NCBI GenBank assembly: GCA_041398705.1
Contig: JAWKUI010000009.1
Span: 111,372 to 175,371, forward strand
From: Planctomycetota bacterium
Lineage (GTDB): Bacteria; Planctomycetota; UBA1135; GCA-002686595
Reading direction: 5' to 3'
DNA: 64,000 bases
Within the stretch, counting starts at the first letter, position 1. Each line of letters begins with the position of its first letter. Shown piece after piece: positions 11,031 to 51,587 of the stretch. Made by a program: the position numbers and the translations under genes. The notes beneath the pieces were generated by a model. It did not search any database. It worked only from the letters and a program-made list of their open reading frames with translations, and was not told the origin of the DNA.

Positions 11031-11040
11031 GCGCGCCCCC

Positions 11041-11649
11041 ATGTCGCTCTACGAACACCAGGTGCTGCCGCGCCTCCTGTCCTGGGGCATGGGTCTGCGC
11101 TACTTCGAAACGCACCGGGCCGCGACGCTGGAAGGCCTCTCCGGCACCGTACTCGAAGTCGGCTTCGGCGCGGGCCACAACCTGCCCCACTACCCCGCCG
11201 CCGTGCGCGAAGTGCTCGCCATCGAACCGAGCGACCTGGCGCGCCGCAAAGCCGCCGCCCGCATCCACGCCGCGCCCTTCCCCGTGCACTTCGCCGGCCT
11301 CGACGGCCAACGCATCGAACTTGACGACCAAAGCGTCGACGGCATCGCTTGCACCTGGACCCTGTGTTCGATTCCCGACGTGCACGCCGCCCTCGAGGAA
11401 ATGCGCCGCGTACTCAAACCCGGCGCCCGCCTGCACTTCTTCGAACACGGTCTCTCGCTTGATGCCAAAGTCGCCGCCAGCCAACACCGCTGGACCCCCG
11501 TGCAAAAACGCCTCTTCGGCGGCTGCCACCTCGACCGCGACATCGCGGGGCTCCTTAGCGCGCACTTCCCCCACCTCGCCGCCACCCCCAAAACCCTGCG
11601 CGGCCCGCGCATCTTGACCACCTGCCTGCACGGGCAGGCGTGGGGTTGA
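11041..11649 (+). CDS. class I SAM-dependent methyltransferase
   Basis: Motif I 'VLEVGFGAGHN', then 'VDGIACTWTLCSIPD' and 'EMRRVLKPGARLHFFEHG' (Methyltransf_11-like). Confidence 0.8.
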   Translation: MSLYEHQVLPRLLSWGMGLRYFETHRAATLEGLSGTVLEVGFGAGHNLPHYPAAVREVLAIEPSDLARRKAAARIHAAPFPVHFAGLDGQRIELDDQSVDGIACTWTLCSIPDVHAALEEMRRVLKPGARLHFFEHGLSLDAKVAASQHRWTPVQKRLFGGCHLDRDIAGLLSAHFPHLAATPKTLRGPRILTTCLHGQAWG

Positions 11650-11721
11650 AGCGCGGCGGGCGCGGCTCGGTTACCCTGGCACCCAAGAGCCCTATAGACG
11701 CCTGCTGCCTCCAACATTGCC

Positions 11722-12921
11722 ATGCTCCCCTGTCGCGTTATCGCCGCCATTTTTTTTCTGCTCGCGCCGCTCACCTCTGCCAAGGGGCCTGTGCAGCGGC
11801 CCGCCAGCCCACCTCAGCAGCCCGCTGCCGGCGCGGGTCTTGCGCAGGTGATGGACGAGACCGCGCCGCAGGTTCGGGTGCAAGTCCTTGCCGCGCCAGG
11901 CACAGGCCCCCAGAGGGTGCAGGACGCATTGCGAGAGGGTTTGTTTCTGTACCGGGAGCGGCCTGAACCCATCACGCTCCACCCCACGCAAATCCTGCCT
12001 GCGGGGGTTGCCCAGTTCACCGGCGTCGAACCCGGAACCTGGCGCCTGGTCGCCTGGCACGCGGACCTTCCCCCGGACAATCGTCTCCTCCAGATTGCAC
12101 GGGATTCTGAGTCGCAGGAGATTCGATTGGCATGGCGCGGCGCGGATTCGCGGGGGCAAGGAAAGTTGCGCGCCTACTTGGGCGATTTGGAGCCACTTTT
12201 CTTGGTACGGTCCGGTGCGCACCTATACCTACAGCCTGGAAATGTGCCGCTTCCGGTGCCTAGGCATGTCCTCGCATTCTTGGGAGCTCGGCCTCGGCCA
12301 GGCAGCATGGATTCGCAGGGCGAGTCCATCGGATCGCACATGGAAGACCCTGGGTCTGACCGACTGCCGGCCGGCAGCTACTCCTTGGAGATCTACCGCT
12401 ATGCTCCAACCTGCCCGCAACCCTTGGATGATCTGGAGTGCAACGCAATGATCCGTGCGCGCTTCGAGATTCGACCCGGGGAGGAAACCGCGGTCCAAAT
12501 GGAACGCTTGGGCTATGGTCAACTGCGACTGACCCTGGTCGGCGCGCTCACCGAGCAGGATCGCGCGCTGCTGGAACTGTGTTCTCCAGCCGACTGGTTC
12601 CAGCGACTCCGGGAGGAGCACGACCTCCTTCGCCGCGGTCTCCGATCCACCCCACCCTGGCCCGTGCGCCCAGGACCCAAGGATGGCGTCGCGATTGCGG
12701 ATCTCCTCGTGGATGGATTTCCCGAGACGCCCGTCTTGTGGGGCGACAACTCATCTGAGTGGTGTTCGTTTGGCGCGTTTCCACTGGGCCGAACGACCCT
12801 CACGGGCTTTCTGCCCGCAGGCCCCGCCGCCCTGCGCATCACCCTGCCCGGAGGCCGGGTTTTCGAACAATCGGTGACCGTACGCACATACGAAGCGACG
12901 GACGTCATGATCGTCTGGTAG
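11722..12921 (+). CDS. hypothetical secreted protein, paralog of 20581..21795
   Basis: Signal peptide MLPCRVIAAIFFLLAPLTSAKG. Shares 'LPAGSYSLEIYRYAPTC' and a C-terminal '...VTVRTYEATDVMIVW' with 'LPPGRYLLESRRYAPSILC' and '...VEVRSGQVTPVEVRW' of the other protein. Confidence 0.55.
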   Translation: MLPCRVIAAIFFLLAPLTSAKGPVQRPASPPQQPAAGAGLAQVMDETAPQVRVQVLAAPGTGPQRVQDALREGLFLYRERPEPITLHPTQILPAGVAQFTGVEPGTWRLVAWHADLPPDNRLLQIARDSESQEIRLAWRGADSRGQGKLRAYLGDLEPLFLVRSGAHLYLQPGNVPLPVPRHVLAFLGARPRPGSMDSQGESIGSHMEDPGSDRLPAGSYSLEIYRYAPTCPQPLDDLECNAMIRARFEIRPGEETAVQMERLGYGQLRLTLVGALTEQDRALLELCSPADWFQRLREEHDLLRRGLRSTPPWPVRPGPKDGVAIADLLVDGFPETPVLWGDNSSEWCSFGAFPLGRTTLTGFLPAGPAALRITLPGGRVFEQSVTVRTYEATDVMIVW

Positions 12922-12943
12922 GCTGCGGGACAACTCCCCCGCC

Positions 12944-13714
12944 ATGCTCACTCCCGACTCGATCCGCGCGCGCCTCGAAGCAGAGGCGCAGGCGCAAGGC
13001 CTAGAAATCTTGCACGCCTGCGAAAGCGGTTCCCGGGCATGGGGCCTGGCATCCACGGACAGCGACTACGATGTGCGGTTCGTGTATCGCCGCCCGTTGG
13101 GGCGCTATCTGGAAATGCAACGGCCTGTAGACGTCATCGGGCCGGTGTTGGAAGGCGAACTCGACTTCGCCGGTTGGGATCTGCCCAAGTTTGCGGCCCA
13201 CCTCGTCCGCAGCAACCCGAGCGTGCTGGAATGGCTCGGGTCTCCGCAATTCTACCTGCATGACAAGGGCTTCCTCGACCAGGCGCGCGATTTGGCGAAT
13301 CGGTACTTTGACGTGCGGCGCGCCGTGCACCACTACGTTGGAATCGGCCAGAGCGCGTGGGATGGCGGCCGCCAGGCCGACGGCACTTGGAACCTGAAGA
13401 AGTTCTTCTACTTCGCCCGCCCGACCTTGGCAGCGGATTTCATCGTGCGCCACGGCGCGATGGCCCCGGTTCCGTTCGATGAGCTGTACGCCCATTGCGG
13501 CGACGCTGGCCTGTCGGCAGAACTCGAAGACCTCGTGCGCCACAAAGCTGGCGTATCCGAGGGCACGGACTTTCCGGTCCCCGGCCCGCTGGAAACGGAG
13601 CTCGTCCGGCGCCGGACGGACGCTGCGCGCGCAGCGGACGCATTCCCCATGCTCGCCCCCGATCCCGAAGCCGCGAATCGGTTCCTGCTCGAACAATTCG
13701 GAGTGCCCCTGTGA
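12944..13714 (+). CDS. Pol-beta-superfamily nucleotidyltransferase, RlaP/PF10127-like
   Basis: 'ESGSRAWGLASTDSDYDVRFVY' carries the GS-x-G...DxD Pol-beta NTase motif, followed by 'GWDLPKFAAHLVRSNPSVLEWL' typical of this family. Confidence 0.7.
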   Translation: MLTPDSIRARLEAEAQAQGLEILHACESGSRAWGLASTDSDYDVRFVYRRPLGRYLEMQRPVDVIGPVLEGELDFAGWDLPKFAAHLVRSNPSVLEWLGSPQFYLHDKGFLDQARDLANRYFDVRRAVHHYVGIGQSAWDGGRQADGTWNLKKFFYFARPTLAADFIVRHGAMAPVPFDELYAHCGDAGLSAELEDLVRHKAGVSEGTDFPVPGPLETELVRRRTDAARAADAFPMLAPDPEAANRFLLEQFGVPL

Positions 13715-16668: not shown

Positions 16669-17031
16669 TCAGTAGGAGACGCAGGGAGCGCCCACGGAGA
16701 GGAACTCCACCAGGCTCGCGCCGCCGACGATGGTGGCGCCGGGGATCAACTTGCTTTCGTCAAGGCCGCGCTTTTTGAAGCAGGGCGAGCAGACCCAGAT
16801 GATGCCGCCGGCTTGGGCGAACTTGGAGATCAGTTCCCCGAGCGGGGCAAACCCTTCTTCGTGCACCCCGTCGGCGTACCCCTGCTGGCAAAGGTGCACG
16901 GCCTCGGTGGACAGGAACATGACGGTCTCCTTCTCGGAGGCCACCGCAGCGTTGGCCACGACGAAGGCGACGGTGGCCTTGTCGGTGTCGTTTTTGGCGG
17001 AGGTCAGACTGACGCAGAATCGGTTGTTCAT
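16669..17031 (-). CDS. DsrE/DsrF-like sulfur-relay family protein
   Basis: About 120 aa, 'MNNRFCVSLTSAKNDTDKATVAFVVANAAVA..ETVMFLSTEAVHL...IIWVCSPCFKKRGL...GATIVGGASLVEFL', matching the DsrE-like fold pattern. Start at ATG 17031. Confidence 0.6.
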   Translation of the reverse strand: MNNRFCVSLTSAKNDTDKATVAFVVANAAVASEKETVMFLSTEAVHLCQQGYADGVHEEGFAPLGELISKFAQAGGIIWVCSPCFKKRGLDESKLIPGATIVGGASLVEFLSVGAPCVSY

Positions 17032-17091
17032 GGGAGGAGCTTTGGGGGGGTCTGGGGAGGGGGAACGCCGCACGCTGGCGGTCGGTGGAGG

Positions 17092-17673
17092 TCAGGACTG
17101 CGGTTTGCGCGCAATCCAGTAGAGGGGGTGTTCGTGGAAGACGAGCGCATTGCCGGTGACGCGGCACCAGGCGGGCAGGTCCCCCGGGGCGCCGGGATCG
17201 GTGGCGCGCACCTGCAGCACGCCGCCGGGTTCGAGCTGGGCGAGGCGCGTGCGCAGTTCGAGCACCAGGTCGCCGCAGCCCATGTCACCGGCATCCCAGG
17301 TGTCCTGGACATTCGGGGCGGCGGACGCGGCGGCCGTCGGGGCCGCCGCCACGGAAATCGGCGCCGTGGGCAGGTAGGGCGGCCGGGATTCGCCAGCTTC
17401 CGCCAGGCGTTGTTCGGAGTGGCGCCAGCCGGCTTTGTAGCAGTCGAGGCGCGCGATGTGCGCGAGGGCGCGGTGCACGAGGGCGCCGGGGGCTTCGCCT
17501 TGGGCCTGGGCCAGGCAAGGGATGCAGGCCGGCGCGTTCTTGTAGCCGAGCAACAGACTCAACACGGCGTCCTGACCGATCAAGGCCTGACCGCAGCGGC
17601 ACGGCTGGCCCCACTGGTCCTCGGCCCAGGCGATCACATCTTCGGCGCGCAAGCTGCTCTTCGCGGGATTCAT
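17092..17673 (-). CDS. two-domain protein: Cys-rich N-terminal domain of unknown function plus C-terminal TusA/SirA-like domain
   Basis: C-terminus 'WDAGDMGCGDLVLELRTRLAQLEPGGVLQVRATDPGAPGDLPAWCRVTGN' parallels the TusA-like domain of 15921..16661. The N-terminus carries CRCG, CIPC and one further Cys. Confidence 0.55.
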   Translation of the reverse strand: MNPAKSSLRAEDVIAWAEDQWGQPCRCGQALIGQDAVLSLLLGYKNAPACIPCLAQAQGEAPGALVHRALAHIARLDCYKAGWRHSEQRLAEAGESRPPYLPTAPISVAAAPTAAASAAPNVQDTWDAGDMGCGDLVLELRTRLAQLEPGGVLQVRATDPGAPGDLPAWCRVTGNALVFHEHPLYWIARKPQS

Positions 17674-29199: not shown

Positions 29200-29917
29200 C
29201 GGCCGCCTCCTCCTGCGCAAGGAAGTCCCGCGCCCAGTTCCACCACTCCCCCGCAGGCAAGGGAGCGCGCAATCGGAGGATCTCGGGGCCGTCCCCGGCC
29301 GTGCGCGTCGGATGGGGCACGCTGAGCGCCAGCGCGTGCAACGCGATGCTCTTGTCGGGCAGCGGCAGGCGCGCGCCGTAACGCAGATCCCCTTCGATCG
29401 GGCCCGCCAGGGTGGCCATGGCCATGCGCAGTTGATGCGGCCGGCCCGTGTGCGGGTGGAGTTCGACCAGGCTTTGGCCCGCTTGGAATGCAAGCACGCG
29501 CCAGGAGGTCACCGCTGCTTTGGCGCCGGCGCTGCCTTCGGGGACCACGGCCGAGGTGTTGCGCACGGGATCCTTGCGCAGCCACTGGTGTAGCTCCCCG
29601 GAGGCTTCGCGCAGACGGCCGGGCACCAGGGCCACGTAGCGTTTGCGCGTGATGTGGCTGCGGAAACTCTCCGACAGCCGCGCGGCGCCCTTGCTGGTGC
29701 GTGCGAAGACCACGAGGCCCGAGACCGGCCGGTCGAGGCGATGCACCACGCCGAGGAACACCGCGCCCGGTTTCTGGAACTCGCGCGCCACCCAGTCCTT
29801 GCCCCAATCGAGCAAGGCCAGATCGCGGCTGTCGTCGGGCACCGTCGGCATGCCGGCCGGTTTGTTCAGGGCCAGCACGTGGTTGTCGACGTGCAGCACC
29901 TGCGGCGCCGCTCTCAC
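29186..29917 (-). CDS. RluA-family pseudouridine synthase
   Basis: 'VLALNKPAGMPTVP' and catalytic-Asp motif 'GVVHRLDRPVSGLVVFARTSK', then 'KRYVALV' and 'TGRPHQLRMAMA'. GTG 29917 overlaps the upstream stop (GTGA). The 80-aa ORF extension was discarded. Confidence 0.8.
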   Translation of the reverse strand: MRAAPQVLHVDNHVLALNKPAGMPTVPDDSRDLALLDWGKDWVAREFQKPGAVFLGVVHRLDRPVSGLVVFARTSKGAARLSESFRSHITRKRYVALVPGRLREASGELHQWLRKDPVRNTSAVVPEGSAGAKAAVTSWRVLAFQAGQSLVELHPHTGRPHQLRMAMATLAGPIEGDLRYGARLPLPDKSIALHALALSVPHPTRTAGDGPEILRLRAPLPAGEWWNWARDFLAQEEAADGIR

Positions 29918-30798
29918 GCCTGCCCCCCGCGCCAGAAGCGTGCGCAGAAGCCGGCAGGCAACAGGCGCGAACTGCCGAGTTCGGGCAACACCAGTTCCCC
30001 CGCTTCGATGCGGCCGGTCCCGCCCGCCTGCAGCATGTTGGCGAAAGCCAGCGGCGAGTAGCCCACCGCATAGGTCGACAGGATCAACAACCCCGGGTCG
30101 GCGAGCAGCTCGAGGGCCGCTTGCACCAGCGGCGCGAGGCCTTCCTCCAACTGCCACTTCTGCCCCTTCGGGCCGCGGCCGTAGTGCGGGGGATCGAGCA
30201 AGATCACCTGGTAGCGTGACCCTCGGCGCACCTCACGGGCGGCGAAACCCAGGGCGTCGTCGAGTACCCAGCGCACCGCCGAAGCGGGCACCTCGCTCGC
30301 GGCCAGGTTGTCTTCCATCCACGCGATCGACTGGCGCGAGGCGTCGACGTGGGTGACGTGGTAGCCCGCCTTGGCAGCGAGCACGCTGGCCACGCCGGTG
30401 TAGCCGAACAGATTCAGCAGTTTCGGTTCGTCGCCAAGGTCCGCGCGCAGGTCGGCGACCACTTGCCAGTTGCTGGCCTGCTCCGGGAAGACGCCGATGT
30501 GTTTAAAGGCGGTGGGCATCACCCAGAAGCGCCCCCCCATCAGCTCGACTTGCCAACGCTTGTCCTTTGGCAGGTTCTTGCCCTTGCGATCGACCCAACG
30601 GCCGCCGCGGTCGGACTCACGGACGAACGTCGCGTCGGCCCCCTGCCAGTGGTCCGGCGACAGGTGCGGCTTCCAGAGGGCCTGGGGATCGGGCCGCCGC
30701 AGCACCTTGCCACCCACGCGCTCGAGTTTCTCCCCATCGCCTGAGTCGAGCAGGGAGTAATGCGGGAGCGGAACCGGGGGGAAGTAACTGGGCTGCAC
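29914..30798 (-). CDS. class I SAM-dependent rRNA methyltransferase (RlmI/RlmK/PF10672-like)
   Basis: 'HIGVFPEQASNW', 'LLNLFGYTGVASVLAAKAGYHVTHVDAS', 'YQVILLDPPHYGRGPKG', characteristic of the Methyltrans_SAM family. Confidence 0.7.
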   Translation of the reverse strand: MQPSYFPPVPLPHYSLLDSGDGEKLERVGGKVLRRPDPQALWKPHLSPDHWQGADATFVRESDRGGRWVDRKGKNLPKDKRWQVELMGGRFWVMPTAFKHIGVFPEQASNWQVVADLRADLGDEPKLLNLFGYTGVASVLAAKAGYHVTHVDASRQSIAWMEDNLAASEVPASAVRWVLDDALGFAAREVRRGSRYQVILLDPPHYGRGPKGQKWQLEEGLAPLVQAALELLADPGLLILSTYAVGYSPLAFANMLQAGGTGRIEAGELVLPELGSSRLLPAGFCARFWRGGQA

Positions 30799-30917
30799 GG
30801 GGGGAGCTTACCGCGAAAGCCGCCCGGGATCCCGCCCCGGGCCAAAGGCGTGCCCCATCGATGCATTCCCGAACCCCAGCCCGGAGTCCGCCGGGTTCCC
30901 GCAGCGTGCGCGGGGGT

Positions 30918-30962
30918 GGAAAACGCGCGCGGGGAGCGAAACCGATCGGTTCCGCTCCCCGC
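30918..30962 (-). terminator. rho-independent terminator downstream of the Cys-rich repeat gene
   Basis: Minus strand reads gcggggagcggaacc-gatc-ggtttcgctccccgc, 15 bp with one mismatch, followed by gcgcgTTTTcc. Confidence 0.5.
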
Positions 30963-30983
30963 GTCGCTGCGTAGGGTCCGGGC

Positions 30984-32735
30984 TCAGCCGTTGACCTTCT
31001 TCGAGCCGCAATCCGCGGCCGGCTTGCCACCGCAGCAACCCTGCTTCTTGGCACCGTTCCAAAGGTTGGTGGGCACAACGGGCTTCACGATTTTCGCGGC
31101 GGGCACCGACGGCAGGGCGGCGGGCACGTTGGCGACCGGAGCCGCACCCGCGCCTTTCACCACGCTGCCAGCCTTACCGGCGCAGCAACCGGCGGGAGCG
31201 GCCTTCTGGGCCTTGCTCGCGCAATCGCTTTCGTCGCAGGCCTTGCCATCGCAAGCCTTGCCGTTGCAGTCCACGGTCGGTTGGGCCTTCTTCGGCGCGG
31301 GGGCGACCACGTTGGCGGCCGGGACGCCGGCGACAGGAGCCGCACCAGCGCCCTTCACCACACCCTGGGCCTTGCTAGCGCAGCAGTCGGCGGTTTTCGC
31401 GGCCTTGCTCGCGCAGTCCCCGCAAGCGGCGCCACTGCAACCAGCGGTCGGTTGGGCTTTCTTCGCAGCCGGAGCCACGTTCGCGGCGGGCACATTCGCG
31501 GCAGGAGCGGCACCGGCGCCTTTCACCACACCCTGGGCCTTGCCGGCACAGCAATCGGTGGACGCGGCTTTCTGGGCCTTGCTCGCGCAGTCCATTTCGG
31601 CGCAGGCAGCGCCGTCACAGGCTTTGCCGTTGCAGTCCACGGTCGGTTGGGCCTTCTTCGGCGCGGGAGCCACCACGTTGGCGGCCGGGACACCGGCGAT
31701 CGGCGCCGCACCCGCGGCCTTCACCACGCCTTGGGCCTTGCCTTCGCAGCAATCGGCGGCTTTCGCAGCTTTGCTCGCGCAGTCACCGCAGGCGGCGCCG
31801 CTGCAACCGGCGGTCGGTTGGGCTTTCTTCGCGACCGGAGCCACGTTCGCGGCGGGCACATTCGCGGCAGGAGCCGCACCAGCGCCTTGCACCACACCCT
31901 GGGCCTTGCCGGCACAGCAGTCGGTGGACGCGGCTTTCTGGGCCTTGCTCGCGCAGTCCATTTCGGCGCAGGCAGCGCCGTCGCAGGCCTTGCCATTGCA
32001 GTCCACGGTCGGCTGGGCTTTTTTGGCGGCCGGCATGTTCGCGACCGGGGCCGCACCCGCGCTCTTCACCACTTCTTGCGCCTTGCCAGCGCAGCAGTCG
32101 GCGGCTTTCGCGGCTTTGCTCGCGCAATCACCACAAGCGGCGCCACTGCAACCGGCGGTCGGTTGCGCTTTCTTGGCAACCGTAGCCACGTTCGCGGCGG
32201 GCACGCTCGCGACCGGAGCCGGAGCCGCACCCTGCGCTACGCCCTGGGCCTTACCGGCGCAGCAGCTACCGGCTTTGCCAGCGGGGGCAGCCACCGCGTT
32301 GGCGGAGGGGCCGTTGCCCTGCGAAGCCGGCATCTTGGGGGCTTTGGCCATCTGGCCACAGCAACCGGCGCCGACGGTCGAGCCGGGTTGGCTCACCGGA
32401 CCTTGGGCCTTGCTCCCGCAACCGGAACCCGCGCAGTCGCCGGGCTTCGCTTTCTGGGGCGCGTTGGCCAGAACCTGGCCGACCGGCATGGCCACGACTT
32501 TCTTCGGCGCGGGCGCAACCGGATCGACTCCGCGCATGGCGACCTTGCCGGCCTTTGTACCGTGGCACGACGTGGAGGCGGCGCAGTCGGACTTGGCGGG
32601 CGCAGCCTGTTGCGCAGCAACCGCCTTGGCCTGGCAGCAGGACGATTTCGCGGGCGCAGCCTGGGCGCCGAAAGACGGCGCAGAGAACGCGAGGGCCACC
32701 AGGGCCGAAAGCGTGAGAAGGGAGGTGCGGATCAT
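30984..32735 (-). CDS. secreted Cys/Ala/Gly/Lys-rich tandem-repeat protein of unknown function (~46 Cys in 583 aa)
   Basis: ATG 32735 with signal peptide MIRTSLLTLSALVALAFSAPSFGAQA. The body alternates units 'KKAQPTAGCSGAACGDCASKAAKAADCCxGKAQGVV' and 'KKAQPTVDCNGKACDGAACAEMDCASKAQKAASTDCCAGKAQGVV', joined by 'GAGAAPxANVPAANVAP' linkers. The minus strand was chosen over antisense ORF 30760..32907 because of the signal peptide, a clean start and the strand of neighbouring genes. Confidence 0.7.
   Translation of the reverse strand: MIRTSLLTLSALVALAFSAPSFGAQAAPAKSSCCQAKAVAAQQAAPAKSDCAASTSCHGTKAGKVAMRGVDPVAPAPKKVVAMPVGQVLANAPQKAKPGDCAGSGCGSKAQGPVSQPGSTVGAGCCGQMAKAPKMPASQGNGPSANAVAAPAGKAGSCCAGKAQGVAQGAAPAPVASVPAANVATVAKKAQPTAGCSGAACGDCASKAAKAADCCAGKAQEVVKSAGAAPVANMPAAKKAQPTVDCNGKACDGAACAEMDCASKAQKAASTDCCAGKAQGVVQGAGAAPAANVPAANVAPVAKKAQPTAGCSGAACGDCASKAAKAADCCEGKAQGVVKAAGAAPIAGVPAANVVAPAPKKAQPTVDCNGKACDGAACAEMDCASKAQKAASTDCCAGKAQGVVKGAGAAPAANVPAANVAPAAKKAQPTAGCSGAACGDCASKAAKTADCCASKAQGVVKGAGAAPVAGVPAANVVAPAPKKAQPTVDCNGKACDGKACDESDCASKAQKAAPAGCCAGKAGSVVKGAGAAPVANVPAALPSVPAAKIVKPVVPTNLWNGAKKQGCCGGKPAADCGSKKVNG
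31101..32174. repeat. tandem coding repeat, about 3 copies of a 366-bp (122-aa) super-unit
   Basis: The string tccatttcggcgcaggcagcgccgtc recurs at 31591 and 31957, 366 bp apart. Protein units fall at A1 188-237, B1 238-302, A2 303-359, B2 360-424, A3 425-481, B3 482-~545. Confidence 0.9.
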
Positions 32736-32885
32736 GATTCTCGTATGGGATAGCGAGGCTTGGGCGGGGCGCGACCCCGCCATGGGAGGTATCGAACGGA
32801 TGCGACACCACCACGCGTACATCTTAACGGATAGGCGCAACATCGGGGCGAGTGCCCGCATGGGCTTTTTTCGCGTTTGCGTTGT

Positions 32886-34373
32886 TTACGGAACTGCAAC
32901 GCGGTAGTGCCGGGAAGCACTGCCAGCAAGGCGCAGGGTCAGGGTCCAGTCCCCCTGCGCCAGGCCCTGATCCGCTTCGATCCAGAGGTGCCCATGGCGG
33001 TCCGCTTGGCCGCCCAGACCCGCTCCCAGCGCCCCCGGCCCCCCATCGACCCTGAGCAGACCTGCTTGGCCGGGCATCAGGCCCCAAATGCAGCACCGGA
33101 ACCCCAAACCGCGAGGCTGGATCCAGCGCCCCTGGGCCTCCCCCGAAGGAACCCGCATCGGCCCCGCGGCGGGCTCCCCGAACCCGGCCACCCAACCCCG
33201 GACCGCGGGCAGGAAGTCCGCGACCCCCATCCCTGGTGCGGCCGCCAGGCATTGATCCCCACGGCTGAGCAGGCTGGCGCCAAAGGCCTCCCGGGGAGCC
33301 TGTCCCGGGATGACCCACGCGAGGTCCGGTACCGTTCCCGGATCGAGCAACCACACGAGCCCTCCGCAGCCGCCCAGGGACCGGGGCGCCCCAACCCAGA
33401 GCCCCGCCTGACCCCAGGCAAGGCTCGACCCGAAACCCGCGAGCCCCACCGGCGCGCGGTGCTCTTCGGCAGCCAGGCGCCAATGGCCGGCGCCGAACTC
33501 GCAGACGAACACCACCCCACCCTCGCCGTGCCGCGGCGCCCCCACGAACAACCGCGTACCACCGGCCTGCCACGCCAGCGCACTGCCGAAACCGCGACCG
33601 TCGATGCGCGGCGCTTCGAGAATCGTGTGGAGGTTCCATTGCTGCGCTGCGCGGCGATAGAGGCACACGGCTCCCCCGGACAACGTTTCCGGCGCCGCCA
33701 CGGCCAGCCAATCCCCACTGCACGCCAACGCGGCGCCGAACTGCGCCTCCTGCCCGGGGAACGGACTCTCGAGCCGAATCGCACGCTCGGCATCGCAATC
33801 GGCCGGGAAAAACCCCGACACCGCGCCGGTGCGCACCGCGCCCGCAGCATCCCGGGCGAACGGGGCCGCGACCCACAACCCACCAAACGCCGGGGCCAGC
33901 ACCTGCCCGAATCCACCGTGTGCGTCCGTGCCCTCGAGCACCCGGTGCAACCGCATTTCCGTGGGTCCGGGGGCCAACAGGTACACACGTCCAGGATCGC
34001 TGCCATCCCCCGGCGCCAACGGCGCACCCGCCGCAAGCAATTGGCTCCCCGGCAAAGCCGCCAACGAATACCCGAGCGCCTGCCACGGCAGCGGCGCCGG
34101 TGCGCCCCCCCACGGGACCGGTTTCTCCCCGCCCCACGCCGGCGCGTTCCAAAGGACACCGGCCCGCTCGCCATTCCGGTGGGAGCGCGGGGCCCCGATC
34201 ACCAGGCGCGACCCCCACCAGGCAAGGGCTTGACCGAAACCCGTGCTCTCCCCGGCCGCCAGCACCGGCGGATCTTCCGGGTCGCTCCAGACCGGCATCT
34301 GCGCCCGCGCAAACCCGCCAAACACTCCGAACACACCCAGGACTCCGCCCCAGGCCCACTTCCACTTCTGCAT
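32886..34373 (-). CDS. secreted FG-GAP / integrin-alpha-like beta-propeller repeat protein
   Basis: Signal-like N-terminus MQKWKWAWGGVLGVFGVFGGFARAQ. Recurring 'GFGxxLA...L(V/F)VGAP' units (GFGQALAWWGSRLVIGAP, GFGSALAWQAGGTRLFVGAP, GFGSSLAWGQAGLWVGAP) match FG-GAP repeats. Confidence 0.65.
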   Translation of the reverse strand: MQKWKWAWGGVLGVFGVFGGFARAQMPVWSDPEDPPVLAAGESTGFGQALAWWGSRLVIGAPRSHRNGERAGVLWNAPAWGGEKPVPWGGAPAPLPWQALGYSLAALPGSQLLAAGAPLAPGDGSDPGRVYLLAPGPTEMRLHRVLEGTDAHGGFGQVLAPAFGGLWVAAPFARDAAGAVRTGAVSGFFPADCDAERAIRLESPFPGQEAQFGAALACSGDWLAVAAPETLSGGAVCLYRRAAQQWNLHTILEAPRIDGRGFGSALAWQAGGTRLFVGAPRHGEGGVVFVCEFGAGHWRLAAEEHRAPVGLAGFGSSLAWGQAGLWVGAPRSLGGCGGLVWLLDPGTVPDLAWVIPGQAPREAFGASLLSRGDQCLAAAPGMGVADFLPAVRGWVAGFGEPAAGPMRVPSGEAQGRWIQPRGLGFRCCIWGLMPGQAGLLRVDGGPGALGAGLGGQADRHGHLWIEADQGLAQGDWTLTLRLAGSASRHYRVAVP

Positions 34374-34430: not shown

Positions 34431-34889
34431 CTACCAGTAGCGACCGGACACGCCGATCACGACGATGCAGACCCCGAGGAACAGGTTCGTGCTGACGAGC
34501 GGACGGATGCGGCCCATGGCCTGGCCTCCGGCGGGCCAATCCTGGCAAGCGACCGCCTTCTGCAGCGCGGCCCAAGGACGGAAGTACAACCCGGCGAAGA
34601 TCAAGGTCATCACCCAGGCGATACCCAGCATCAGGTGCACGTGGAGGCGGGCTCCCGCCATACCCCCGAAGTACCCGAAGAGCAGCGCGTAGCCGGTGGC
34701 GTGCAGCACGGCAATCGAAAGCCAGACCAATGGGAAGAAGCGGCGGAGCACCCCATGCCAGACGGTCAAACGCTGCGGGGGTTCGAGGTGTTCGACGAGG
34801 GTCGGGCGCAGGGCGAAGTGCACGAAGAGCATGCCCCCCACCCAAAGGGTGGCGGCCAGGCCATGCAGGGCGATCCACAAACTGATCAT
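34431..34889 (-). CDS. small 4-TM membrane protein, CopD-family-like
   Basis: Start at ATG 34889. 'MISLWIALHGLAATLWVGGMLFVHFALRP' resembles the LHxxAAxxWxGG helix of CopD-family proteins. 152 aa with four hydrophobic helices. Family call is tentative. Confidence 0.45.
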   Translation of the reverse strand: MISLWIALHGLAATLWVGGMLFVHFALRPTLVEHLEPPQRLTVWHGVLRRFFPLVWLSIAVLHATGYALLFGYFGGMAGARLHVHLMLGIAWVMTLIFAGLYFRPWAALQKAVACQDWPAGGQAMGRIRPLVSTNLFLGVCIVVIGVSGRYW

Positions 34890-42313: not shown

Positions 42314-44077
42314 GTGAGCAGTCCCACCCTTTTCGACCCGGCTGAGACCGAAGTGCCGAAGAAACAACGCAAGAGCAAGGCCAAAGCCGAGGCCAGTACC
42401 GAGGCCGAATCCACCCCGACCGAAGCTCCGGCCCCCGAAGCCCCCCAGGGCGGCGGTGGCGGCGTCAGCAAGGCCCGCGACATCTCCGTGGCGGAGTTCT
42501 TCGAGAAGAACCGGCACATGCTGGGCTTCGATTCCCCCACGAAAGCCCTGCTGATGGCGGTCAAGGAGGCGGTCGACAACAGTCTGGACGCCTGCGAAGA
42601 GGCCGGCATCCTGCCCGACATCACGGTCGAGATCACCCCCACCAGCGAAAAGCACTTCCTGATGGCGGTCGAGGACAACGGCCCGGGCATCCCCGATACC
42701 CACATCGGCAAGATCTTCGGCAAGCTGCTGTACGGCTCGAAGTTCCACAAGCTCAGCCAGAGCCGCGGCCAGCAGGGCATCGGCATCTCGGCCGCCGGCA
42801 TGTACGGCAAGCTGACCACCGGCAAACCCGTCAAGGTCATCTCCAAGACCCGCCGCGGCCGCCCGGTCGAAACGGTGCTGTCGATCGATTCCCTGCGCAA
42901 CAAGCCGGAGATCCATTCCTCCCAGGAGGTCGCCTGGGAGGGCCGCAGCCACGGCACGCGCGTCGAGATTGAGATGGAGGCCATCTACAAGAAGGGCACC
43001 CGCTCGGTCGACATGTACCTCAAGCAGACCGCGATCGCGAACCCGCACCTGACCGTGCGGTACCGCGATCCGGGCGGCACCGAGTTCGTGTACGAGCGCA
43101 ACACCAAGGAGAAGCCGGCCAAAACCGTCGACATCAAGCCGCACCCGCACGGCGTCGAACTCGGCCGACTGATCACGATGCTCAAGGAGACCACCAGCCG
43201 CTCGCTGTCGGGTTTCCTGCAGGAGGAATTCTGCCGCGTCGGCGCTACCCTGGCGGGCCGCATCATCGATGCCGCCGGCCACGGCCTGACGACCAAGTCC
43301 TACCCCACCCGCACCGCGCGCGAGCAGGCGCAATACCTGCACGATGCGATCCAGAAGACCAAGATCAGCGCACCGCCCTCGGACTGCATCGCGCCGATCG
43401 GCCAGGAGCTCTTGCTCAAGGGCCTGGAGAAGGAGATCACCGCCGACTTCTACGTGACCGCCACGCGGCCGCCGGCAGTCTACCGCGGCAACCCCTTCCA
43501 GATCGAAGTCGGCCTTGCCTACGGCAAACCCGGCGGCGTGGGCCTCGAGGTCACCGACGAAGGGCGCATCCAGAAGAAGTCCAAGGCCGAGTTGGCCACC
43601 GAGGACCTGGTCGCCAACGCCGACGAACCCGCGCGCGTGCTGCGTTTCGCCAACCGCGTGCCGCTGCTCTACCAGCAGGCCGGCTGCGCGATCACGAAGA
43701 GCATCATCTCCACCAACTGGCGCTCCTACGGTTTGACCCAACCCAAAGGCAGCCTGCCGATCGCCCCCATGGCGATCATGGTGCACATCGCTTCGGTCTG
43801 GGTGCCGTTCACCTCCGAGTCCAAGGAAGCCATCGCCGCCTACGACGAGATCATCGCCGAGGTAAAGAAGGCCCTGCAGGACGCCGGTCGCAAACTCGGC
43901 ATCTACATCCGCAAGGGCAAACGCCTGAAGCGCGAATTCGACAAGCGGGAGTACATCGAGAAGTACATCCCCCACATCGGCCTGGCCCTGCAGGAGATCC
44001 TCGACCTGACCGACAAGACCCGCGACGAGGCCGTGGAAACCCTCGAAGACGTGCTGCACCGCTCGCGTAAATTCTGA
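42314..44077 (+). CDS. top6B: DNA topoisomerase VI subunit B
   Basis: Bergerat ATPase boxes '[13 protein letters not shown]' (N-box), 'VEDNGPGIP' (G1) and '[12 protein letters not shown]' (G2), followed by H2TH/transducer-length sequence. GTG start at 42314. A Lys/Ala/Glu/Pro-rich N-terminal tail of about 50 aa is present. Confidence 0.9.
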
Positions 44078-44085
44078 TCCCGACC

Positions 44086-45279
44086 ATGGCGAAGAAGAAA
44101 GCAACCAAGAAGGCCGCGACGAGCAAAGCCCCGGCCTCCAGTTCCGCCGCCAAGAAGGCGGTACCGGCCCTCTCCGAGCTGGATCGCAAGACCCTCGGCG
44201 TGATCACCACCACCGCGGACCGGGTGCACAAACGCATCCAGGACCGGGTGCTGCCCGAGCTGAAGTTCCCGGTGCGTTCGCTGCAGAACGTGAACTACAC
44301 GAAATCCGGCGGGTACTTCGAACTCGGCAAGAGCCGCAAGGCGCGCGCCTTGACCGTCAACACGGTCAAGAGTTTCGCCCAGACCCTGCGGCTGATGGCC
44401 CTGTCGAAGGAGATGGTCGAAAACGACAACTTCGCGACGAAACGGGAGGCGTACTACATCTCGAAGAACTGGAGCGAAGCCAAGTTCAACCAGCAGCCCG
44501 AGTCGGACGCGGTGATGGACGACATCGAGGCCCTGGCGAGCCTCGAGGGCCTCACCCGCGAGCAACTGCGCTACCGCCCCGAAGAACACGGCGGCGCCCT
44601 CGCCGGCGAGCTGATCGTGATCGACCGCGACCGCACCACCGGAGCGGAGATCCGCATCGACTGCACGGCCATGGGCACCGGGGCCTACACCATCCCCTCC
44701 TCGGTTGAGCACCTCAAGTTCGAGACCAAAGCCAAGTTCATCCTGGCGATCGAAACCGGCGGTATGTTCCACCGCCTCAACGACCACCAGTACTGGCGCA
44801 CCGCGAACTGCATCCTGATCTCCATGGGCGGCGTGCCCAGCCGCGCCCAGCGCCGGTTCATGCGGCGCTTGTCCGAGGAGAAGAAGCTGCCCCTGTACTG
44901 CTTCGTGGACTGCGATCCGTACGGTATCGCCAACATCTACCGCACCCTCAAGGTGGGCAGTGGTAACGCGGCGCACATCAACCGCTTCTTCTGCGTGCCG
45001 AACGCCGAATTCCTGGGGGTCACGCCCCAGGACATCCTCGACTTCAAACTCGAAGATGCCACCCACCCCCTCAAGCCGGTCGACGTCAAGCGGGCCAAGG
45101 ACGCCCTCAAGAACGACCCCTTCTTCAAGGCGCACCCCGCCTGGAACAAGGCCATCAACCACCTGCTCAAGATGGGCGTGCGTGCCGAACAACAGGCCCT
45201 CGCGAAGTGGGGTCTCAACTTCGTGATCGAGGAATACCTGCCGCGCAAGTTGAAGAACAAGAAGAGCTTCCTTCCCTGA
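44086..45279 (+). CDS. top6A: DNA topoisomerase VI subunit A (Spo11 family)
   Basis: Catalytic-Tyr context 'TKREAYYISKNW'. Toprim residues in 'FILAIETGGMFHRL' (Glu) and 'LYCFVDCDPYGIANIY' (DxD). Located 8 nt after top6B. N-terminal 'MAKKKATKKAATSKAPASSSAAKKA' tail. Confidence 0.9.
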   Translation: MAKKKATKKAATSKAPASSSAAKKAVPALSELDRKTLGVITTTADRVHKRIQDRVLPELKFPVRSLQNVNYTKSGGYFELGKSRKARALTVNTVKSFAQTLRLMALSKEMVENDNFATKREAYYISKNWSEAKFNQQPESDAVMDDIEALASLEGLTREQLRYRPEEHGGALAGELIVIDRDRTTGAEIRIDCTAMGTGAYTIPSSVEHLKFETKAKFILAIETGGMFHRLNDHQYWRTANCILISMGGVPSRAQRRFMRRLSEEKKLPLYCFVDCDPYGIANIYRTLKVGSGNAAHINRFFCVPNAEFLGVTPQDILDFKLEDATHPLKPVDVKRAKDALKNDPFFKAHPAWNKAINHLLKMGVRAEQQALAKWGLNFVIEEYLPRKLKNKKSFLP

Positions 45280-48933: not shown

Positions 48934-49280
48934 GGCAGTGTTGGACAGGGTAGGCAGGGCCCTGATACGGGGTGGGAGAGGATGGGGAACCGGCAATCGG
49001 CGCCCTCTGGTCCGAATATGCCAACCGGTCTCAATCCCGCCAGGGCCTTTTTCCCGGGGTCAGAAACTGTCCCCAAAGCGGGCGGATCGCGACGAATCGT
49101 CAGTGTCCGAAACCGGGACGGGACTACCGGGGCCGGGTTCGGCGAAGCCGTGGACCCCCGCCAGGGGCCCCCCAAGGCCGTGTCGGAACTGTAATCGGGA
49201 ATTTTCCGGCACTGACAATGCCGTTCGGCAAAGTGTCGACGACTCCCTATCCCTGCTCCCTCAACCGGAGGCTCTTCGCA

Positions 49281-51587
49281 ATGCGAACCATCCACATCGG
49301 CGTGCTGCTCGCCGCCCTGGCACCTTCCCTGTGCCAAGGGGCTTCCGCCCAGGACCGCGTCCTGGCGTGGAACGACCTGGGCATGCACTGCCTCGACCCG
49401 GACTTCTCCATCTTCTCCATCCTTCCCCCGTTCAACACGCTCAACATCCAGGTGATCCGCGCGGGTCAACTGGTGACGGGCACCGGTCAAGTGCAGGTGA
49501 CGTATCAAGCCCAGGCGGACGCCGATGGCTCGATCAACACCTCCTCGATCGGCAAGACGAACTTCTGGGACTACAGCACCGCGTTGTTCGGCGCGAACCT
49601 TGCCCCGGATACCGGTCTCGCCGGGTATTCGATGCCGGGCGCCGCGAACACGCCCCAGCAGGTCGGCTTCGACAACGCCTGGGCCTGGTTCCACGCCGAA
49701 GGCATCCCCTTTACCCCCATCGATGATGGTGGCGCGGACAACCCCTACCCGCTGCTCAAGTTCCAGGCGCGCTCCACCACCGGAGCGCTGCTGGCGGAAA
49801 CTGTCGCCAGCGTGCCGAACTCCAAGGAGATGGAGTGCTCGCGGTGCCACGCCTCGGGTGCCAACCCGGCCGCGCGCCCGTCGAGCGGCTGGACGTACGA
49901 GGTCAACACCCTCGAAGACGACCGCTTCAACATCCTGCGCCTGCACGACGATCTGCAGGGCGGCACGCCGCGTTACGCCACGTCCCTGCAACTGGCTGGG
50001 TTCGACCCCGCTGGTCTCGAGGCCACCGTGCGCAACACCGGCACCCCGATCCTGTGCGCGAAGTGCCACCCGTCCAACGCCCTGCCGGGTTCGGGCCTGT
50101 ACTTCATCTCCCCGATGACGCGCGCCATGCACGCGGGCCACGCCCAGGTGTCGGACTTCATGGGCAACTCCCTGAACGCCCCCACCGGCCGTGCCGCGTG
50201 TTACACCTGCCACCCCGGCGCCAAGACCCAGTGTCTGCGCGGCGCGATGGGCAAGGCGATCGGTCCCGATGGCGACAAGGCCATGGACTGCCAGTCCTGC
50301 CACGGCGACATGGAGACGGTCGGATCCTGGGATCGCCAGGGTTGGTTCGAAGAGCCGAACTGCCAGGCGTGCCACGCCGGCTCGGCCACCCAGAACCCGG
50401 GCCAGATCCGCTATGACCACGCGTTCGACGCGAACGGGGATCTGCGCCAGGCCACTACGAACCTCTTCGCTACCAACGACGACACCCCGGCCCCGGGCAT
50501 CTCCCTGTACCGCTTCTCGACCGGCCACGGCGACCTGCAGTGCTCGGCGTGCCACGGCCCGCCCCACGCGATCTACCCCACCTCGGAAGCCAACGACAAC
50601 CAGCAGAGCGTCGCGTTCCAAGGCCATGAGGGCACGATCCAGGAGTGCAGCTCCTGCCACAACAGCCTGACCGCCGCCCAGCGCGTGAACGGCCCCCACG
50701 GGATGCACCCGAGCAACTCCGCCTGGGTCAACAACCAGCACGGGGATTGGGTGGAGACCAACGGCTCGGCCTCCTGCCGGGTGTGCCACGGCACGGATTC
50801 GCGCGGCACGATCCTGTCCGAAGCCAAAGCGGACCGCACCTTCAACACCCAATTCGGTACGAAGCAGTTCTACCGTGGGTTCCAGGTCGGTTGTTACGCC
50901 TGCCACGACGGCCCGAACGATGGCGATGCCAACAACAACTCGGCGCCCGTGGTGCAGAACATCTCGGTCAGCACTCCGAGCGACCTGTCGATCCAGATCC
51001 CCTTCCAGGGCAGCGATGCCAACGGCACCGCGCTGACCTACAAGCTGATCACCCAGCCGCAAAGCGGCACCGCGGGTTGGAACGCGAGCAGCACCACGTA
51101 CTACCCGGACCGCGCCTTCCAGGGCACGGTGACCTACCAGTACGCGGCGTGGGACGGCGAGGTCCAGTCCCAGCGCGGCACGATCACCGTCCAGGTGACC
51201 GCTCCGTCGTGCACCGCTGAAGTCGAGGAATTCGGCTTCGGTTGCCCCGGTTCGAACGGCGAGACCCCGCGCATGACCCTGAGCGGTTGCGCGAACCCCG
51301 GCTCCACGGTGCAGCTGCACCTGGACCGCGCTACCCCGAACACCTTCGTGTACATGGTCCAGGGCAGTGCCCGCCAGGTGCGTGAACTGTGGTTGGGTTG
51401 CGTGTTGCGCGTGGCTTCTCCGATCACCTTGAGCCTGGTGCAGACCGATGCCAACGGCGAGCTGAACTACGACGTGACCCTGCCCACCGGCGCCGGGGAC
51501 ACCGTGGTGATGCAAGCCTTTGTGCTCGACCTGTCGATGGGCACCCGCGGAACCTTCTCGAACGCGATCGAGATCCGCCTCCCCTAG
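49281..51587 (+). CDS. secreted multihaem (nine CXXCH) c-type cytochrome with C-terminal Ig/cadherin-like region
   Basis: Signal peptide MRTIHIGVLLAALAPSLCQGASA. Nine CXXCH motifs: CSRCH, CAKCH, CYTCH, CQSCH, CQACH, CSACH, CSSCH, CRVCH, CYACH. ATG 49281 lies within ORF 48972... Confidence 0.85.
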   Translation: MRTIHIGVLLAALAPSLCQGASAQDRVLAWNDLGMHCLDPDFSIFSILPPFNTLNIQVIRAGQLVTGTGQVQVTYQAQADADGSINTSSIGKTNFWDYSTALFGANLAPDTGLAGYSMPGAANTPQQVGFDNAWAWFHAEGIPFTPIDDGGADNPYPLLKFQARSTTGALLAETVASVPNSKEMECSRCHASGANPAARPSSGWTYEVNTLEDDRFNILRLHDDLQGGTPRYATSLQLAGFDPAGLEATVRNTGTPILCAKCHPSNALPGSGLYFISPMTRAMHAGHAQVSDFMGNSLNAPTGRAACYTCHPGAKTQCLRGAMGKAIGPDGDKAMDCQSCHGDMETVGSWDRQGWFEEPNCQACHAGSATQNPGQIRYDHAFDANGDLRQATTNLFATNDDTPAPGISLYRFSTGHGDLQCSACHGPPHAIYPTSEANDNQQSVAFQGHEGTIQECSSCHNSLTAAQRVNGPHGMHPSNSAWVNNQHGDWVETNGSASCRVCHGTDSRGTILSEAKADRTFNTQFGTKQFYRGFQVGCYACHDGPNDGDANNNSAPVVQNISVSTPSDLSIQIPFQGSDANGTALTYKLITQPQSGTAGWNASSTTYYPDRAFQGTVTYQYAAWDGEVQSQRGTITVQVTAPSCTAEVEEFGFGCPGSNGETPRMTLSGCANPGSTVQLHLDRATPNTFVYMVQGSARQVRELWLGCVLRVASPITLSLVQTDANGELNYDVTLPTGAGDTVVMQAFVLDLSMGTRGTFSNAIEIRLP

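Follow-up and report, generated by a model that had tools for sequence, protein, structure and literature searches.

A tandem-repeat, cysteine-rich protein with a predicted signal peptide, encoded in a clade-specific gene block of uncultured Planctomycetota

The 64,000-nucleotide stretch of a Planctomycetota metagenome-assembled genome (MAG) analysed here (GCA_041398705.1, contig JAWKUI010000009.1; hereafter the window) carries on its minus strand a gene for a cysteine-rich repeat protein. The open reading frame (ORF) is open over 30984..32861, and a MIRTS start at 32735, also chosen in the NCBI annotation, yields a 583-residue product identical to 'hypothetical protein R3F33_15740' of a Planctomycetota MAG. 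This product contains exactly 46 cysteines (7.9%), with 10 vicinal CC pairs, against a background of 1.24% Cys in the 33 other ORFs of the window (binomial P for at least 46 Cys, about 1.6e-22). Its composition is dominated by Ala (28%), Gly (11%), Lys (10%), Val (9%), and Pro (8%, more exactly 8.2%), and the mature chain of 557 residues includes no Phe, no Tyr, and one each of Trp, His, and Arg; counted over the whole protein there are 8 Met and 1 His. The protein is strongly basic, with an isoelectric point (pI) of about 9 and 62 Lys plus Arg residues versus 27 Asp plus Glu. The features of the gene are as follows.

30984..32735, minus strand: coding sequence of the Cys-rich repeat protein, 583 amino acids plus stop, the only frame open in 5/5 orthologues
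32658..32735, minus strand: predicted Sec-type signal peptide MIRTSLLTLSALVALAFSAPSFGAQA, read from the sequence, with neither a twin-arginine motif nor a lipobox
32175..32657, minus strand: N-terminal degenerate region, residues 27-187, 10 Cys, holding the blocks SSCCxAKA, (M/L)RGxV..APAPKxVV, and CCxGKAQGV
31830..32174, minus strand: super-unit 1, residues 188-302, 115 residues, one A unit (5 Cys) plus one B unit (6 Cys), from the repeat alignment
31464..31829, minus strand: super-unit 2, residues 303-424, 122 residues, its DNA 90.1% identical to super-unit 1
31098..31463, minus strand: super-unit 3, residues 425-546, 122 residues, its DNA 80.6-82.5% identical to super-units 1 and 2
30984..31097, minus strand: C-terminal tail, residues 547-583, with a CC pair and one further Cys, ending ...DCGSKKVNG before the stop, from the alignment
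30920..30967, minus strand: terminator-like hairpin of 19 paired positions with a 4-nt loop, then GCGUUUU, starting 17 nt past the stop codon

The 26-residue N-terminus MIRTSLLTLSALVALAFSAPSFGAQA displays the n/h/c layout of a Sec signal peptide followed by an AxA site; its n-region holds one Arg and lacks the RR motif. The N-terminus is kept as M(I)R(T/S)xLFxL...AQ in the aligned orthologues L083, L086, L089, and L090 (handles beginning with L denote contigs of related genomes). Judged from this N-terminus and its conservation, the product is predicted to be exported by the Sec route. A preliminary description of the same DNA, prepared from its letters, had proposed this ORF with about 46 cysteines, the skewed composition, the near-absence of aromatic residues, and a signal peptide for secretion, and all of these proposals were borne out. 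At the other end of the gene, the hairpin has a folding free energy of -40.3 kcal/mol (z -7.4), with 0/200 shuffled sequences folding as well, and L001, L083, L086, and L089 each have a hairpin of equal strength but different sequence after the stop codon, so that 5/5 lineages including the window carry one. The C-terminal ending of the window protein, C..K(V/I)(S/N)G, is also common to L001, L083, and L089. A sigma-70 scan found no promoter upstream of the gene, and comparison of the upstream regions of five lineages revealed no promoter or operator element common to all of them. A TTGCGC-N3/4-GCGCA palindrome does lie about 85 nt upstream of the gene start in L086 (about 9255-9270) and in L090, with a half-site, TTGCGCCTA, at about 32830-32845 of the window; this palindrome could be an operator, or it could reflect mere conservation between close relatives.

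The body of the protein is a tandem array. Tandem Repeats Finder reported a 366-bp period with 3.2 copies and 84% matches over 31117-32264, and at the protein level two kinds of unit alternate, A (C-x4-C-x2-C-x9-CC, 5 Cys) and B (C-x4-C-x4-C-x4-C-x11-CC, 6 Cys), which are joined by AAPxANVP-type linkers. The six near-equal units each start with KKAQPT, and degenerate CC and C-x4/5-C motifs occur on both flanks of the array. The result is a beads-on-a-string layout: clusters that pack 5-6 Cys into about 20-30 residues alternate with Ala/Pro/Val/Asn spacers some 35 residues long, such as GAGAAPVANVPAANVAP, which bear a recurring P(V/A)AN motif. The alternating units, linkers, and flanking motifs agree with the preliminary description; of its three 122-residue super-units, the number and the 366-bp period held in the repeat alignment, while the first super-unit proved to be 115 residues long. 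Its further statement that the DNA copies are nearly identical, and hence recently expanded or homogenised, is contradicted by the comparison of the copies. Pairwise DNA identities of the super-units are 90.1%, 82.5%, and 80.6%, and 60-90% of the nucleotide differences fall at codon position 3 (14 of 19-22 for A units, 9/10 for B1 versus B2). Nei-Gojobori estimates between copies gave a synonymous divergence (dS) of 0.26-0.73 and a nonsynonymous divergence (dN) of 0.008-0.11, with dN/dS of 0.03-0.20; the 28-residue Cys core is identical in A1 and A2 and has one change in A3, despite a dS of about 0.46-0.48. The low dN/dS, the appreciable dS, and the third-position bias thus indicate that the copies are old duplicates held by purifying selection, rather than products of recent expansion or homogenisation. 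Since the copies diverge by 10-19% in DNA, they are distinguishable by reads, which makes an assembly collapse unlikely. In a second genome, L082 (GCA_041398625.1, 94-96% identical, and possibly from the same study as the window), colinearity extends across the gene: the array has the same length and no gap the size of a unit, although single-base indels are many.

The strand of the gene calls for separate consideration, as the preliminary description had warned with good reason, because a second long ORF covers the same DNA.

30760..32907, plus strand: antisense shadow ORF of 715 amino acids, overlapping both neighbouring genes and judged not to be a gene

The G+C content at third codon positions (GC3) was rejected as a strand discriminator, since the wobble position is common to the sense frame and the antisense -1 frame (GC3 0.77 versus 0.78); for the same reason the dN/dS pattern cannot tell sense from antisense. 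Two antisense frames are stop-free across the gene in the window. Antisense openness is to be expected, since the gene makes almost no use of TTA, CTA, and TCA, the codons complementary to stops. The orthologues do discriminate: the frame of the 715-residue ORF has 0 stops in the window but 2 in L001, 7 in L083, 1 in L086, and 7 in L089, the other antisense frame has 9 stops in L086, and the sense frame alone is open in 5/5 orthologues (window, L001, L083, L086, L089). The sense strand is also favoured by its signal peptide, Cys blocks, and terminator. In L083, the public gene call is a 691-residue antisense shadow ORF (9770-11845, minus strand) instead of the 609-residue Cys-rich sense gene (9890-11719, plus strand). 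In L090, the Cys-rich gene contains a run of N at about 10078-10177, where a short-read assembly broke in the repeats, and has been called as two pieces of 261 and 145 residues.

Searches of standard resources revealed no relatives. Pfam, NCBIfam, and the PDB returned zero matches at E <= 1 for the protein, and searches with the orthologues likewise returned nothing, in line with the initial impression that it belongs to no named family. The best PDB match of a profile built from the units was an unrelated lectin (E = 7.6); this match and one to HC2 histone-like proteins (19.8 bits versus a cut-off of 40) were the only sub-threshold ones, and both are compositional. Searched by word index against 5.8 billion proteins, the whole protein found itself and one orthologue, P0002, and the profile of eight units found only P0003, a fragment of the L082 copy. 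An exhaustive hidden Markov model (HMM) profile search of 1.84 billion representatives found only the protein itself (P0001), P0002, and P0003. The P0002 ORF is cut off by the end of its contig, and its alignment begins at the signal-peptide cleavage site. The contig holds the same downstream genes, namely methyltransferase, RluA-type pseudouridine synthase, GT87, peptidase M1, and radical-SAM genes. Two metagenome-contig scans, one with the neighbouring FG-GAP-repeat protein and one with the unit profile, gave pattern matches of which none was confirmed by tblastn, possibly owing to low-complexity filtering.

Further orthologues were reached by synteny, with a neighbouring 152-residue CopD-like protein as the query, and by reading the contigs of the closest Planctomycetota relatives. 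This approach uncovered fast-diverging positional orthologues in at least five lineages besides the window, so that the family set comprises the window, L001, L083, L086, L089, and L090, all from metagenome assemblies. The genes reached in this way are unannotated, and their products of 454-609 residues carry signal peptides of the same type (MIRTTLFTLAALALMALPATAQ, MRSSLFSLVVLLCLTMPTWAQ and similar), with 6.8-8.4% Cys, 5-10 CC pairs, 22-28% Ala, 9-15% Lys, a pI of 9.0-9.7, and 2-5 aromatic residues (Phe, Trp, and Tyr, signal peptide included). The whole mature proteins of four lineages contain 46, 51, 33, and 38 Cys, an odd number in two of the four. The alignment is anchored by SSCCxAKA directly after the signal peptide, (M/L)RGxV..APAPKxVV, KA(Q/K)PSxDCxGxxCGGxxCxxGxC, CCxxKxQVV, and a C-terminal ...C(G/S)(T/S)xK(V/I)(S/N)G, and 9/27 of its invariant columns are Cys. 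In five of the six lineages P[VA]AN occurs 9, 5, 3, 7, and 5 times, where shuffling predicts at most 0.2. The L086 gene has tandem repeats of its own, of 312 bp and 231 bp, and none that long are found in L083 or L089; together with the 366-bp period of the window, these lineage-specific repeats indicate that unit number changes independently in each lineage. Members of the family thus share a Sec signal, a length of 450-610 residues, the above ranges of Cys, Ala, Lys, and pI, the CCxxKxQVV block, a position after the FG-GAP gene, and the terminator hairpin. Taken together, these data establish a real, conserved gene under selection, encoding a basic, thiol-rich protein of multiple similar units that is predicted to be exported, and the alignments and searches place this protein in a small unnamed family of its own, so far confined to one small group of uncultured Planctomycetota.

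The known range of this family is limited by the searches, since standard ones miss members. The exhaustive HMM search returned three proteins, whereas synteny added at least five more lineages, and the miscall in L083 and the assembly gap in L090 imply that the family is under-represented in protein databases; the same under-counting probably affects low-complexity, high-GC genes of this kind more generally. In 28 Planctomycetota species genomes, the DNA upstream of the methyltransferase gene was inspected and contained no Cys-rich ORF apart from a distant fragment in L004 (3-311, plus strand). This C-terminal fragment is rich in Ala, Lys, Thr, Ser, and Val, has five 'ECC' repeats (KKEGECCSSAAKASVVSTK...), goes undetected by the unit profile, and sits 2 kb upstream of the orthologous methyltransferase gene with a 613-residue ORF in between; it may represent a distant relative of the Cys-rich family.

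The gene is the last of a three-gene cassette, in the order CopD-like membrane protein, FG-GAP-repeat protein, and Cys-rich protein, closed by the strong terminator hairpin. At this locus MqnA/D lies on one strand, and the cassette, followed by the methyltransferase, RluA, and GT87 genes, on the other. The two upstream genes are listed below.

34431..34889, minus strand: CopD-like membrane protein of 152 amino acids (P0004), first gene of the cassette, assigned by Pfam CopD and annotated by NCBI as 'CopD family protein'
32886..34373, minus strand: FG-GAP-repeat protein of 495 amino acids, the upstream neighbour in the cassette, assigned by Pfam FG-GAP_2 and alignment

The CopD-like protein passes the gathering score of Pfam CopD (PF05425; 45.8 bits versus a cut-off of 32.1). 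The FG-GAP protein has repeated GFG..L..G..L.VGAP blocks, which are consistent with a beta-propeller, a signal-peptide-like N-terminus, and no invariant Cys. The cassette layout recurs in L083, L086/L087/L088, L089, and L090, while the L084 and L085 contigs stop shortly past the CopD-like gene and show only the start of the layout. The CopD-like gene belongs to the cassette in all lineages whose contig includes the upstream side, so that the co-occurrence with CopD-like genes which the preliminary description suggested looking for was indeed found. In about ten related Planctomycetota genomes (among L005, L011, L014-L017, L024, L027, L032, and L036), MqnA/D and the methyltransferase gene are direct neighbours on opposite strands and, with the three-gene block missing, the gap between them is empty; in L002 (4100-8000) it is filled by unrelated ORFs, several with signal-peptide or lipoprotein-like N-termini. 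The CopD-like, FG-GAP, and Cys-rich genes are thus a clade-specific block in a variable slot. Identity to the window orthologues is 60-67% for the methyltransferase and 63-69% for the CopD-like protein, but 31-37% for the FG-GAP protein and 29-44% or undetectable for the Cys-rich protein, and by this comparison the latter two are the fast-evolving pair. No significant hairpin occurs between the FG-GAP and Cys-rich genes (z -1.2 to -1.7), whereas a strong one follows the Cys-rich gene; the simplest reading is co-transcription of at least these two. No other metal-resistance gene was found near the Cys-rich gene.

CopD proper is regarded as a carrier of copper across the inner membrane, an assignment that is itself debated (PMC7558416). 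The 152-residue subfamily is widespread in Proteobacteria beside rpe-gph-trpE and not beside copper genes, and its link to copper is therefore weak. Outside the clade, the closest relatives of the cassette protein are gammaproteobacterial (Halomonas, 56-57% identity; P0050 and P0068; contigs L091, L093, and L094), with the rpe-gph-trpE neighbourhood conserved, a hint of horizontal acquisition of the planctomycete copy and of a subfamily role that need not be copper resistance.

Structure prediction yielded no confident fold. AlphaFold gave a mean predicted local distance difference test (pLDDT) score of 49 for one B unit with an 8-row alignment and of 31.7 for the full-length single sequence, inputs so shallow that low scores are weak evidence on the fold; together with the composition, they suggest that the chain probably has no fold of its own. 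The exported thiols would serve either in cross-linking of the envelope or in metal uptake. From its sequence features, the protein appears to act like either a metallothionein or a Cys-rich envelope protein of the Planctomycetes-Verrucomicrobia-Chlamydiae (PVC) type, while being a member of neither group. These two readings are close and sequence alone cannot separate them; the first place is given to the envelope.

The tentatively preferred interpretation, held with a good deal less than even confidence, is a polycationic, disulfide-cross-linkable scaffold of the envelope or matrix that works with the FG-GAP protein. Briefly, after export the Cys clusters, and above all the invariant vicinal CC pairs, would form intra- and intermolecular disulfides, while the positive charge would keep the chain on anionic polymers of the envelope or matrix. 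The FG-GAP protein, apparently co-transcribed and equally fast-evolving, might bind the repeated spacer motif, a step that is purely inferred. The two proteins together would build a cross-linked, multivalent envelope or extracellular scaffold, in which the copy number of units would be tuned by tandem duplication in each lineage and which would be a functional analogue, unrelated in sequence, of the Cys-rich wall proteins of planctomycetes and the Cys-rich envelope proteins of chlamydiae.

Several considerations place this scaffold first. Exported cysteines are usually oxidised, and the odd number of Cys in each A unit (5), as in the whole protein of two of four lineages, fits intermolecular bonds better than closed disulfide domains. 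The scaffold also explains the conserved spacers with their recurring motif and the co-diverging FG-GAP protein. Chlamydial OmcA and OmcB offer a parallel from the same PVC superphylum: both are exported, rich in Cys and Lys, and stiffen the envelope by intermolecular disulfides, OmcA being a 9-kDa lipoprotein and OmcB a folded 60-kDa protein. The planctomycete protein shares their export, as predicted, and their Cys and Lys content but differs from them in having a repeat architecture, no lipobox, and no Pfam match to either. Within the phylum itself Cys-rich wall proteins are documented, as Cys-rich proteins are established components of planctomycete cell-wall preparations, and the YTV proteins of Planctomycetales are candidates for a protein-based, disulfide-linked wall (PMC8567305). 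Like these, the protein is Cys-rich, lineage-restricted, and, by prediction, exported; unlike these, it has no Tyr and hence no YTV motif, is composed largely of Ala, Lys, and Gly, and comes from a different, uncultured clade; a wall location is putative here. If correct, the scaffold would amount to a second, unrelated kind of Cys-rich wall or matrix protein in Planctomycetota, and would give one of the bacterial FG-GAP proteins, many of which are unexplained, a candidate ligand. The protein-rich envelopes of Planctomycetota are a long-standing puzzle.

A number of observations weigh against such a scaffold. The FG-GAP protein has no invariant Cys, the P[VA]AN motif is absent in L089, and all members come from metagenome assemblies. 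The conserved CopD-like gene is given no role, and clusters rich in Lys, Ala, Ser, Gly, and Asp and free of aromatic residues and His are equally typical of metallothioneins. In addition, the gene content indicates that menaquinone is made by the futalosine route in this organism, which may live with little oxygen, and exported thiols could then stay reduced.

The nearest competitor is a periplasmic or extracellular sponge of the metallothionein kind, a possible though somewhat doubtful explanation, in which the chain would be exported unfolded by Sec and its clusters would then fold around soft metals. Each cluster of 5-6 Cys, or each 11-Cys super-unit of A plus B, might form a metal-thiolate cluster whose negative charge the lysines would offset. 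The CopD-like neighbour makes Cu(I) the leading candidate, with Zn, Cd, or Hg possible, and the protein would buffer or store metal beside that membrane protein. Cys, Lys, Ala, Ser, Gly, Asp, and Asn abound in the clusters, and the mature protein has next to no aromatic residues and one His, a composition that is the classical one of metallothioneins and suits this reading well. Eukaryotic multi-domain metallothioneins gain capacity by internal tandem duplication, and duplication of the units would likewise scale capacity here; nor are odd Cys counts an obstacle to metal clusters. The CopD-family gene is in the cassette wherever that side of the locus is visible, and the three genes are absent together from about ten related genomes. 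The apo-protein has no predicted fold, and metallothioneins fold only on metal binding (PMC7558416).

Set beside known metallothioneins, including the tandem forms of ciliates and molluscs and the fungal Cu-thioneins, the protein resembles them in its vicinal CC pairs, in the surroundings and aromatic-poor, His-poor character of its clusters (0 Phe, 0 Tyr, 1 Trp, and 1 His in the mature chain), in the lack of a predicted fold without metal, and in a capacity that can grow by duplication. It departs from them in its size of 583 residues (557 mature), where metallothioneins are under 10 kDa, and in its Cys content of 7.9% overall (about 19% within a B cluster) versus 15-30%. It has no C-x-C motif, C-x2-C only once per A unit, CC and C-x4-C instead, and long conserved spacers between the clusters; the known bacterial SmtA/BmtA and MymT lack a signal peptide, and no metallothionein model in Pfam or NCBIfam and no PDB entry matches the protein, for which metal binding is only a candidate property. 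A search of the literature for metallothioneins in planctomycetes found nothing relevant.

Other exported metal binders are no closer. Csp1, the sole known exported Cys-based store, resembles the predicted exported protein in being extracytoplasmic and in having many cysteines that could hold Cu(I), but it is a rigid, pre-folded four-helix bundle exported by the twin-arginine translocation (Tat) route (PMC7558416), whereas the present protein has a Sec-type signal with no RR, AlphaFold, at low confidence, did not show a bundle, C-x4-C spacing with Gly is not helical, and PDB sequence searches, Csp1 (5FJE) included, were negative. Known periplasmic copper binders are mostly based on Met and His; PcoE/SilE and CusF are exported, and PcoE/SilE are disordered in the apo state and occur in cop/pco-type gene clusters, but they bind through Met and His, of which the Cys-rich protein has 8 and 1. 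A metal sponge would also leave the conserved 35-residue spacers and the FG-GAP partner without a role, and it gains little from the neighbourhood, given the rpe-gph-trpE association of the 152-residue CopD-like family and the lack of another metal-resistance gene nearby. In its most novel form, the sponge would be the first Sec-exported modular metallothionein-like bacterial protein, with Cu(I) or soft-metal thiolate clusters assembled in the periplasm along a 55-kDa chain and coupled to the CopD-like and FG-GAP proteins, with a capacity set by lineage-specific duplication, a proposal we regard as rather unlikely. Were a sponge the true function, the protein would store metal on thiolates outside the cytoplasm, in a way for which no bacterial design has been described.

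An exported thiol buffer, a periplasmic and sacrificial sink for oxidants, electrophiles, or polysulfide/sulfane sulfur that cycles between thiol and disulfide or persulfide, is improbable. A flexible exported chain would offer a high thiol load, C-x4-C pairs can close small redox-active rings, and sulfur-relay genes of the DsrE and TusA types lie 14 kb away, but these genes are not linked to the cassette at orthologous loci, and the cassette contains no thioredoxin-like, Dsb, or sulfurtransferase gene. The conservation of non-Cys residues in the 28-residue core points to a defined structure or partner, not to bulk thiol.

Still less probability, very little in fact, attaches to a polyprotein or modified-peptide precursor, the latter of which the preliminary description had entertained; cleavage between the units, at KK for instance, would release Cys-rich peptides of 55-65 residues, possibly modified. 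The six near-equal units, each starting with KKAQPT, and two radical-SAM genes within 8 kb invite this idea, but the latter are of the CofH/MqnC type, consistent with menaquinone synthesis by the futalosine route, and are found at an unchanged position in genomes that lack the cassette. Orthologues do not keep the dibasic boundary but read VKAMPS, TKAQPS, and IKAKPS, and a Sec-signal protein of 450-610 residues is unlike known precursors. A modified-peptide system would combine a short leader and core with an exporter and modifying enzymes. Nothing but the CopD-like and FG-GAP genes accompanies the Cys-rich gene in the cassette, which has no modifying enzyme, protease, cyclase, or exporter. 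That the 715-residue antisense ORF is expressed instead, or that the array is an assembly artefact, is the least credible alternative of all: two open antisense frames, a non-discriminating GC3, the choice of the antisense ORF by one gene caller in L083, and the gap in the short-read MAG L090 are outweighed by the 2, 7, 1, and 7 antisense stops in orthologues, the near-absence of TTA, CTA, and TCA codons, the conserved sense-strand signal peptide, Cys motifs, and terminator, copies that differ by 10-19% in DNA, and an equal array length in L082. Functions outside those listed take up the remaining probability.

Some further features of the window were recorded. Next to the cassette, the methyltransferase and RluA ORFs overlap by 244 nt (29914-30157), while in L083 a single 398-residue product is called over 12235-13431; the overlap could be a fusion, translational coupling, or a frameshift. 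The adjacent DsrE-family and TusA-domain sulfur-relay genes (16669-17673, minus strand) have, at 3.6-3.7%, the highest Cys content among the ordinary ORFs of the window. Adjacent genes for subunits B and A of a Spo11-type topoisomerase VI, an enzyme that is mainly archaeal and eukaryotic, occupy 42314-45279 (plus strand) of this Planctomycetota genome. Finally, an 871-residue protein encoded at 48972-51587 (plus strand) combines MtrC/MtrF-like and cytochrome c7-type multihaem domains with a bacterial Ig domain, and may, from this domain content, be an extracellular electron-transfer cytochrome.

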